IMG/VR virus record: IMGVR_UViG_2636416140_000004
Length of the DNA stretch: 7,042 nt
Reading direction: 5' to 3' (one strand)
From: a virus
Taxonomy: Duplodnaviria > Heunggongvirae > Uroviricota > Caudoviricetes
Both the position numbers and the translations under genes were made by a program. Numbering within the stretch: the first letter of the stretch is position 1; each line of letters starts with the position of its first letter. Positions 888 to 2,625 of the stretch are shown here, in pieces. The notes under the pieces were generated by a model that was not told where the DNA came from, ran no database searches, and saw nothing but the letters and a program-made list of their open reading frames with translations.

Positions 888-1323
888 ATGAAGCGTGAAG
901 AAATCGCTGATCTGATGGCGTTTGTCGTCGTTGCAGAGGAGCGTAGCTTCACTCGCGCAGCAGCCCGCCTGAGCATGGCGCAGTCAGCTTTAAGCCAGAT
1001 AGTGCGCCGTATAGAAGAACGATTGGGATTGCGGCTTCTGACGCGAACCACGCGCAGCGTTGTACCCACTGAAGCGGGCGAGCATCTTTTGTCTGTTCTT
1101 GGCCCTATATTGCATGACATAGATTCTGCCCTGACATCCCTGAGCGATCTGCAGAACCGCCCATCCGGGACAATACGTATTACTACTGTAGAACATGCAG
1201 CAAAAACGATATTGTTACCAGCCATGCGCACATTCCTGAAATCGCATCCTGAAATTGATATTCAGCTTACCATTGATTATGGTTTGACCGATGTCGTTTC
1301 TGAACGTTTTGATGCAGGCGTCC
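888..1323 (+). pseudogene. pgrR: LysR-family transcriptional regulator (PgrR/YcjZ-like), truncated after about codon 145 by IS600
   Basis: N-terminal HTH (EERSFTRAAARLSMAQSALSQIVRRIEERLG) and start of the co-inducer domain; the frame runs into the IS inverted repeat at 1324 and ends in IS-derived codons (to 1370). SD GGAG at 876..879. Confidence 0.8.
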
Positions 1324-1366
1324 TGAGGTGTACTGGCAATAGCGGACACTACCATTTGTTCTTTTT

Positions 1367-2185
1367 TTAAGCAGCCATCTGATGATATTTTTCCCTGAAG
1401 GCTGCCGGGGAGATATTCCCCAGACGAGAGTGACGACGCTGACGATTGTAGAAAATCTCAATGTATTCCCGTATTACTGAGATGGCTTCATCCCGGTTAT
1501 TAAAACGATAGTGGCTCAGGCTCTCATTTTTCAGCGTTCCCCAGAAGCTTTCCATCGGAGCGTTGTCGTAACAGTTACCTTTACGCGACATTGATGTTTT
1601 CAGACCAAACTGCTCCTGTATGACCCGGTAATCGTATGCGCAGTACTGTGAACCTCGAGCAGAGTGGTGGATTAGCCCGGCAGGTGGGCGCTGGCTCCTG
1701 AGCGCCATAAACAGGGCTTTACCTGTCAGCTCTTTTGTCATGCGCTCTCCCATGGCGTAGCCGACAATTTCGCACGTATAAACATCTTTGATGCCAGCGA
1801 GGTACAACCATCCCTCCTGTGTGGCAACATACGTCAGGTCCGCCACCCAGACCTGATTTGGTGCTGTAGGAGCGAACGTCTGGTTCAGCAGATTTGGCGC
1901 AACTGGCAGATTGTGGTTCGGGTTCGTAGTCGCTCTGAACTTGCGTTTCTGCTTACAGCGTAGCCTTAGCTCCTTACGAAGACGTGCCAGTCGGTCACGA
2001 CCAACGATGATGCCATTCTCTGCCAGCTCCGTCTGGAGCCGCCGGGTTCCATATGTTTCGCGAGTGCGGATATGTGCCACCTTAATCTCCAGTTTTAGCC
2101 GCTCATCACTTTGTTTTCTGTCTGAGGGTTCATGCTGTACCCAGTTGTAATAACCGCTCCTGGATACACCAAATACCTGACACAT
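1367..2185 (-). CDS. IS600-like OrfB (DDE catalytic domain; expressed as OrfAB fusion by -1 frameshift)
   Basis: 272-aa ORF with an rve-integrase-like core (VWVADLTYV...HHSARGSQY...NAPMESFWGTLKNE). Its frame is the -1 frame relative to orfA at the slippery site. Confidence 0.85.
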   Translation of the reverse strand: MCQVFGVSRSGYYNWVQHEPSDRKQSDERLKLEIKVAHIRTRETYGTRRLQTELAENGIIVGRDRLARLRKELRLRCKQKRKFRATTNPNHNLPVAPNLLNQTFAPTAPNQVWVADLTYVATQEGWLYLAGIKDVYTCEIVGYAMGERMTKELTGKALFMALRSQRPPAGLIHHSARGSQYCAYDYRVIQEQFGLKTSMSRKGNCYDNAPMESFWGTLKNESLSHYRFNNRDEAISVIREYIEIFYNRQRRHSRLGNISPAAFREKYHQMAA

Positions 2186-2220
2186 CGCTTCAATGGGAAA
2201 TTGTTGTCGCCATTGTTCGA

Positions 2221-2523
2221 TTAACGCGTATTTTTCAGCGACTCCTGTGCAAAATACGCTGTTGCTTTTTTTAATATATCTCGCTCAAGGCGAGCTTCAT
2301 TTAACGCCTTACGCAGTTGCAGAATTTCAGATTCCAGTTCAGCCACCGTGCGGGAACCAGGAGTACCGAGCCCTTTTCTGGCGGCGGTAACCCATTGTCC
2401 TAAAGTGCCTTCAGGAAGAGATAATCGGGAAGCGCCTTCACTGATCGAAAGTTGATTTTCAAGAACCGTTCTGACAGCTTCGGCTTTGAACTCTTTAGAG
2501 TAACGTTGGGTTTTTCTGCTCAT
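2221..2523 (-). CDS. IS600-like OrfA (HTH DNA-binding part of the transposase)
   Basis: 100-aa ORF MSRKTQRYSKEFKAEAVRTV... with leucine-zipper-like C-terminus, typical of IS3-family OrfA. Confidence 0.85.
   Translation of the reverse strand: MSRKTQRYSKEFKAEAVRTVLENQLSISEGASRLSLPEGTLGQWVTAARKGLGTPGSRTVAELESEILQLRKALNEARLERDILKKATAYFAQESLKNTR
2266..2272 (-). other. Programmed -1 ribosomal frameshift heptamer A_AAA_AAA in orfA (IS600-like)
   Basis: Minus strand reads TTA AAA AAA GCA (L-K-K-A of orfA). By frame arithmetic, a -1 slip here enters the orfB frame (first bases at positions congruent with 2185 mod 3). Confidence 0.6.
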
Positions 2524-2625
2524 TATTAGCTCCTTCTGATGCCATTCTATTTCAGGAAGGAGTGTCCGTTAAACTCAGGCTACCTCAGTGTTCTGGTTTG
2601 AAAAATATCAAGAAGGGGCTACGGC

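Follow-up and report, generated by a model that had tools for sequence, protein, structure and literature searches.

Organisation of the locus

The window analysed here, the whole stretch of 7,042 bp, is an entire draft contig (GCA_000815945.1, ANAN01000163.1). Annotation of its genes, insertion sequences and flanking triplets revealed the following features, in order of their position.

1-31, minus strand: terminal 31 bp of an IS1 at the contig end, which cuts ycjY and is identical to window 5494-5524
31-750, minus strand: ycjY (alpha/beta hydrolase), 239 aa after the IS1 cut; the intact protein has 306 aa
888-1323, plus strand: pgrR (LysR-type regulator), codons 1-145 plus 1 nt
1321-1323: left flanking triplet TCC, presumably one half of the target-site duplication first made in pgrR
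1324-2587: complete IS600, 1264 bp, transposase genes on the minus strand, aligning end to end with annotated copies
1324-1353: terminal inverted repeat on the orfB side, TGAGGTGTACTGG...
1367-2185, minus strand: IS600 orfB, 272 aa, with HTH_21, rve, rve_3 and rve_2 (rve integrase core)
1659, minus strand: private T>G change, which produces D176A within the HSDRGSQY motif of OrfB
2221-2523, minus strand: IS600 orfA, 100 aa, HTH_Tnp_1
2265-2272, minus strand: A7G slippery run, site of the programmed -1 frameshift by which OrfAB is made
2558-2587: terminal inverted repeat on the orfA side, ...GGCTACCTCA
2588-2590: right flanking triplet GTG, HNH codon 109, presumed to be half of a second target-site duplication
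2588-2629, plus strand: 3' remnant (42 bp, last 13 codons plus stop) of the HNH-endonuclease gene in a lambdoid prophage
2626-4756, plus strand: prophage genes (221-aa ORF, DUF551, hokD-type Hok/Mok, rem-like 70-aa ORF)
4757-5524, minus strand: simple IS1 insertion with the 9-bp duplication CTGTTAGTA at 4748-4756 and 5525-5533
5603-6932, plus strand: prophage genes (DUF1367, ydfU-like; DUF1364, ybcO-like; truncated DUF1133/Q-like)

At the left margin, sister contigs run on from the terminal 31 bp of IS1 into IS1 insA. The adjoining flank, consisting of ycjY and pgrR, occurs in 5,243 of 5,426 E. coli genomes at 98-99% identity. After codon 145, the intact pgrR gene reads GTCTGGGTGG; in the window its open frame extends into IS600 as far as 1370 and specifies a 160-aa chimeric product. 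Pfam analysis of the PgrR remnant revealed a complete HTH_1 domain and a partial LysR_substrate domain covering ~60 of 209 profile positions, the intact protein (YcjZ) being 299 aa long. The pgrR gene of the window is a pseudogene. A protein search with the C-terminal half of PgrR recovered only E. coli alleles with frameshifts, fragments adjoining IS1 and unrelated fusions, with no IS600-linked fragment among them (a weak negative), and a pgrR 3' probe run against GTDB species representatives matched one E. coli genome, with no Shigella representative.

The element interrupting pgrR is a complete IS600 bounded by both inverted repeats, as an earlier note on this DNA had proposed. Over positions 1-1264 it is 99.8% identical to copies annotated as 'IS3-like element IS600 family transposase' on Shigella and E. 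coli plasmids, and it shares 99.7-99.8% identity with chromosomal E. coli copies. Its termini read TGAGGTG... on the left and ...CTACCTCA on the right; these TGAGGT.../...ACCTCA-type ends are the same as in ten sampled E. coli copies and agree with the TG...CA-type termini of IS600 as a member of the IS3 family. The two inverted repeats match imperfectly, being complementary at 20 of the 30 terminal positions, and for this reason they were absent from the output of a generic repeat finder, which requires a 9-nt exact seed. The two open reading frames, the A7G site and the HTH and rve domains together reproduce the expected IS600 and IS3-family layout. OrfB scored 328 bits against the NCBIfam IS3-family transposase model (cutoff 160), and near-identical IS600 copies in RefSeq are annotated with 'programmed frameshift'.

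The window copy nevertheless differs from this pattern in its missing 3-bp duplication and in the D176A substitution of OrfB, which is private to it: residue 176 is Asp in all 20 other IS600 copies compared and Ala only here. By analogy with the IS3 family in general, Asp176 of the HSDRGSQY motif probably belongs to the DDE triad; when OrfB was compared with PDB structures to place this residue, no homologues were matched.

On the right, IS600 abuts prophage DNA. The intact HNH gene reads ...CCGGTTGTG/TTCTGG at the junction (the slash marks the break), and at the far end of the prophage segment the DUF1133/Q-like gene encodes 147 aa in the window versus 184 in full. The earlier note proposed an intact Qin-like prophage for comparison, and the hokD-rem-ydfU-Q module does follow the gene order of Qin. 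The nearest intact prophages, however, are those of E. coli VL40 (99.0%) and FDAARGOS_944 (97.5%), which are integrated beside ttcA, the Rac site, with Rac-like early genes (ydaS, ydaT, ydaU). These Rac-site prophages carry the same Qin-like module and, IS1 apart, match window 2588-6931 at 97.5-99% identity. They retain an intact left part (int, recE, ydaS/T/U, HNH), whereas in the window none of the prophage to the left of HNH codon 109 is present.

Duplication habit, ancestral flank positions and junctions

The triplets on either side of the window IS600 are unlike, TCC on the left and GTG on the right, exactly as the earlier note had read them, and the element has no 3-bp target-site duplication. 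That note had given such duplications as normal for IS3-family insertions, and sampled copies bear this out. Among ten IS600 copies taken from complete E. coli genomes, eight are flanked by a perfect 3-bp duplication. Related S. flexneri loci provide two further examples: an IS600 inserted in mpaA between two TTA triplets, with colinear flanks, and a copy in strain 89-141 bounded by CTG at either end. IS600 makes fixed 3-bp duplications. Since eight E. coli copies and two copies at related loci are duplicated, the missing duplication is informative, and since duplication is habitual for IS600, a copy with unlike flanks is a rearranged one. The remaining two E. coli copies, which lack a duplication, adjoin truncated genes or other IS fragments. 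Of five distinct IS600 copies at the related S. flexneri loci, three are likewise without one. A duplication characterises a newly inserted copy and is no part of IS600 itself, and its absence marks a rearranged copy.

The two flanks come from different, co-oriented ancestral sites, pgrR codon 145 and HNH codon 109, which agrees with their placement by the earlier note in the middle of pgrR and in phage DNA. Alignment to reference genomes, which that note had recommended, showed the flanks contiguous in no reference: whole-window and junction searches of 5,426 complete E. coli genomes (Shigella excluded) found neither junction and never the two flanks side by side. In E. coli VL40, pgrR (+) and HNH (+) are separated by 33,071 bp and have the same order and orientation as in the window. 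The interval between them contains mppA, ynaI, ynaJ, uspE, fnr, ogt, abgTBA, abgR, smrA, dgcM, zntB, dbpA, ttcA, an integrase and early phage genes. Because the flanks are co-oriented and keep their E. coli order, the geometry is that of a deletion between direct repeats; an inversion was rejected on the same grounds.

This separation also bears on the idea that IS600 simply inserted at a pre-existing junction between pgrR and phage DNA, or inserted without making a duplication. Beyond its bare possibility, what speaks for this idea is that two of the ten E. coli copies likewise lack a duplication, yet both of these adjoin truncated genes or other IS fragments. In addition, flanks that lie ~33 kb apart in E. 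coli were joined in none of 5,426 genomes, and relatives with the same left junction carry different DNA to its right. We regard a simple insertion as hardly credible, and insertion without duplication was rejected, since a distance of ~33 kb between the flanks in E. coli effectively refutes it.

Both junctions were traced in other assemblies. The left-junction probe, the chimeric 160-aa PgrR'-IS600 product, matched three complete genomes and several draft contigs, and the left junction recurs in seven assemblies. The right-junction probe was a DUF551 protein variant specific to the lineage of the window; the right junction was found with 0 mismatches in four independent assemblies (e.g., GCA_029289505.1, GCA_017282435.1, GCA_031961565.1 and Logan ERR048308). 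Because each recurs in independent assemblies, both junctions are genuine and lineage-wide. Only the window contig spans the two together, the other assemblies of the lineage ending at IS600, and protein queries with the 147-aa Q fragment and the DUF551 variant returned only short contigs and no complete genome of the lineage.

Related S. flexneri loci and the proposed origin of the window IS600

The closest complete relatives are S. flexneri 3a strains 71-2783 (CP024470.1) and J17B (CP100042.1) and the serotype Y strain 89-141 (CP026803.1). Given flank identities of ~99.9% and the IS junctions in common with these relatives, the chromosome of the window appears to be of S. flexneri type.

The left junction of the window recurs unchanged in 71-2783, J17B, AFOW01000015.1 and UGYT01000001.1, but there IS600 stops at nucleotide 854 and is followed by a 1250-bp IS911 (99.7% identical to the annotated element). 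In three of these four, the prophage resumes at a point 861 bp to the left of its breakpoint in the window, with DUF4014 and HNH intact; in UGYT01000001.1, IS911 adjoins tail genes of another prophage. Strain 89-141 has IS911 after its mpaA-linked IS600 and an IS1 between IS911 and the prophage. The IS1 insertion at window 4757-5524 is common to J17B, AFOW01000015.1 and 89-141. The arrangement of 71-2783 and J17B (pgrR', IS600 nucleotides 1-854, IS911, prophage) thus resembles the window in its left junction, its prophage, the IS1 at 4757 and flanks of 99.9% identity. It differs in its truncated IS600 with IS911 and its intact DUF4014 and HNH, whereas in the window a complete IS600 lies against HNH codon 109. 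Where J17B has 2,108 bp made up of IS911 and 861 bp of phage DNA, the window has IS600 nucleotides 855-1264. At positions 1608 and 1659 the window IS600 also departs from the pgrR-linked fragment found in each of the four relatives.

From the observed anatomy, the origins of the flanks, the duplication habit of IS600 and the architecture of the relatives, we infer a second insertion, a recombination and an order of events. The window IS600 is probably a recombinant, left by recombination between two IS600 copies. A first IS600 would have inserted in pgrR at ...GGCGTCC, and a second, complete copy would have entered the 3' end of the HNH gene in the same orientation, at ...GTTGTG/TTCTGG, with duplication of GTG. 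Homologous recombination of the two direct copies would then have deleted the interval between them and left one full-length IS600, with TCC from the first insertion and GTG from the second, hence no duplication. Because the pgrR-linked IS600 of the relatives is without one end and orfA, the full-length IS600 of the window needs a second, complete donor. The differences at 1608 and 1659 are expected of such a hybrid and are consistent with a crossover in the first ~285 bp.

Two routes could have led to this product. In a sequential route, an ancestor resembling the 3a strains (pgrR', IS600 nucleotides 1-854, IS911, phage) would have lost 2,108 bp, namely IS911 and 861 bp of phage DNA, with full-length IS600 restored. 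In a parallel route, an intact IS600 insertion in pgrR would have recombined with one in HNH, with ~33 kb lost at once. We slightly favour the sequential route. The juxtaposition of pgrR and prophage may be older than the recombination between IS600 copies and associated with IS911. The earlier note had attributed the unlike flanks to an IS-mediated deletion or recombination between IS600 copies that removed the 3' half of pgrR and the left part of the prophage. Recombination between two copies is still the best explanation of the hybrid flanks, but since the 3a relatives already join pgrR' to the prophage, this step may account for 2,108 bp only. The 3' half of pgrR and the left part of the prophage are indeed missing at the junction, but the S. 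flexneri 3a relatives indicate that their loss may be older and IS911-associated.

The structure of the contig raises a further explanation, an assembly chimera, in which a real 3a-type structure and a separate simple insertion of IS600 in HNH were merged, pgrR' being threaded through a collapsed IS600 into the phage. We consider this unlikely. The entire 7,042-bp sequence is one draft contig that starts with exactly 31 bp of IS1, and the link between the flanks is unsupported by any long contig, the lineage's other assemblies ending at IS600; both points are compatible with a chimera. Both junctions are real, however, and 1659G is absent from 20 other copies, so the window IS600 is not a collapsed consensus; the unique 861-bp phage segment would also need to have been skipped. 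Even if a chimera had arisen, IS600 would stand at the HNH site regardless, and the deletion step alone would fall.

A transposase-mediated adjacent deletion would yield the same end product as recombination between two copies, and the product alone has no power to separate them. Here an active IS600 junction, in a tandem dimer or derived from a circle, would have attacked an HNH target in the same molecule. The sequence at the new flank is compatible with such an attack: GTG/TTCTGG resembles other IS600 right flanks (TTA/ATCTGG in mpaA, TCC/GTCTGG in the pgrR reference) and is identical at 8 of 9 positions to nucleotides 5-13 of IS600's own end. Both likenesses suggest a target genuinely chosen by the transposase, but such a target is equally expected if insertion was followed by recombination. 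IS3-family elements move by copy-out-paste-in, and donor flanks are not normally deleted, so that an adjacent deletion would be an unusual outcome. The pgrR-linked IS600 of a 3a-type ancestor, moreover, is without one end and orfA, and the OrfB of the window copy carries D176A. On balance an adjacent deletion seems improbable.

Searches for parents and by-products of the proposed recombination between two IS600 copies gave no matches. Neither an IS600 insertion in pgrR with TCC on both sides nor one in HNH with GTG on both sides was present in 5,426 complete E. coli genomes. Metagenome scans for the reciprocal junctions IS600-TCC-pgrR'' and HNH-GTG-IS600 were both empty, and no truncated 109-aa HNH appeared in a protein search or in a listing of clusters. 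An 'IS600 ORF1' beside IS911 on pCP301 was considered as the reciprocal half and rejected, as it is a different IS600-like fragment (93.5% identical).

Comparable events are documented in Shigella. Deletions between IS600 copies have been seen directly on the Shigella virulence plasmid (PMC5629016), and deletions mediated by IS elements count as a hallmark of how Shigella evolves (PMC7373316). The proposed event resembles the loss of the T3SS island from pINV by recombination of IS600 copies (PMC5629016) and the IS-driven deletions of genome reduction (PMC7373316), in that direct copies recombine, the DNA between them is lost and a hybrid IS without a target-site duplication is left. It differs in being chromosomal, between pgrR and a prophage remnant of the Rac site. 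The specific event of the window was not found in the papers searched, and neither pgrR nor ycjZ is mentioned in PMC7373316.

Implications for Shigella genome evolution

At least four IS-bounded architectures were seen in the interval between pgrR and the Rac-site prophage, and the ycjY-mpaA operon and its regulator gene pgrR have been struck by IS1, IS2, IS600 and an IS110-family element. These observations could be read as marking an IS hot spot in S. flexneri that is remodelled again and again, possibly under selection; in the lineage of the window, the scar would have been frozen by a hybrid IS600 with a putative catalytic-site substitution, D176A. We regard this broader reading as highly doubtful.

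The fate of the intervening DNA matters because it contains fnr. Type III secretion in S. flexneri is under FNR control, and fnr is functional in this species. If the ~25 kb between pgrR and ttcA (with mppA, uspE, fnr, ogt and the abg genes) was truly lost and not relocated, the lineage would lack FNR. An excised circle, carrying an IS, could reintegrate elsewhere.

For annotation, pgrR should be marked as a pseudogene in the lineage of the window, and the right junction, IS600/GTGTTCTGG, provides a lineage-specific marker carried by dozens of draft assemblies. Where IS copies without a target-site duplication are met in draft contigs, long-read relatives should be checked before deletions are inferred.

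The window IS600 represents an ordinary, textbook kind of IS-driven genome decay in Shigella. It adds one more IS-mediated pseudogenisation and deletion to a process known from earlier descriptions as the chief cause of genome decay in these bacteria.

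A private substitution in the IS600 transposase

The IS600 copy of the window carries a private T>G substitution at position 1659, in codon 176 of orfB, which replaces the conserved Asp of the HSDRGSQY motif with Ala. The equivalent position is T in all 20 other IS600 copies examined (20/20). By analogy with IS3-family transposases in general, this Asp would be the second acidic residue of the DDE triad. The sister-assembly contig L010 ends exactly at window 1658, which suggests that the 1659 polymorphism is real in the lineage. The window copy is probably unable to transpose by itself.

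The right flank of this copy (2588-2596, GTGTTCTGG) is identical at 8 of 9 positions to nucleotides 5-13 of the opposite end of IS600 itself (window 1328-1336, GTGTACTGG), and TCTGG occurs at the same offset in the mpaA site (TTA/ATCTGG) and the pgrR site (TCC/GTCTGG). This likeness between targets and element end hints that IS600 may prefer targets resembling its own end, a question on which the E. coli IS600 sample, having been picked by flank similarity, is biased. Separately, E. coli VL40 has an IS600 inside the recE gene of its Rac-site prophage (L061 39156-40312), oriented like the window copy; this prophage is intact in other respects.

IS1 and gene-level changes in the prophage

Within the prophage portion, an insertion element lies directly after the stop codon of the rem-like ORF:

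4757-5524, IS1, cleanly inserted and flanked by a duplication of 9 bp, CTGTTAGTA (window 4748-5533)

This insertion is common to S. flexneri J17B, contig AFOW01000015.1 and strain 89-141. In J17B and AFOW01000015.1, ydbD-ynbABC replaces the DNA to the right of the shared IS1, an arrangement that indicates an additional IS1-bounded deletion in these two.

Three substitutions within 130 bp of the DUF551 gene (3309, 3373 and 3436) set the lineage apart from every relative examined, with only one other difference in the surrounding 2 kb; a different prophage may have donated this stretch through a short recombination tract. At 6931/6932 the window lacks 1,012 bp that are present in E. coli VL40 (L001 11571-12582). 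This deletion shortens the Q-like (DUF1133) gene to 147 aa and removes the ORF6N gene, its junction showing 4 bp of microhomology and no IS. Just past the contig end lies a phage tRNA cluster (L032).

Insertions and deletions around ycjY, mpaA and pgrR

Window positions 1-31 are the end of an IS1; at exactly 31 bp, this piece resembles a contig end of k-mer size. The IS1 at this contig start shortens ycjY (31-750) to 239 aa. The S. flexneri 3a genomes 71-2783 and UGYT01000001.1 have IS2 in ycjY instead of IS1, while the gene is intact in other relatives.

Sister-assembly contigs also share precise end points: L010 and L013 start 5 bp within the IS1 junction (window 37), and several others (L041, L045, L046, L047 and L049) start exactly at window 2591, 3 bp into the phage flank. 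These starts may reflect either end-trimming by the assembler or a second sequence context.

In a 115-aa protein (cluster P0070) encoded by 202 contigs, the C-terminal 75 residues of PgrR are preceded by sequence read antisense to ycjY. This fusion points to a putative independent deletion of the 5′ half of pgrR and the intergenic region in a different lineage of E. coli or Shigella.

Across four left-flank loci (L004, L005, L018 and L019), the interval from mpaA to the prophage takes at least four different IS-bounded architectures. The insertions around this flank comprise mpaA::IS600 (with a TTA duplication), an IS110-family element and pgrR::IS600, and ycjY is interrupted by IS2 or IS1. 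The entire ycjY-ymjC-mpaA operon, together with its regulator pgrR, is being dismantled in S. flexneri.
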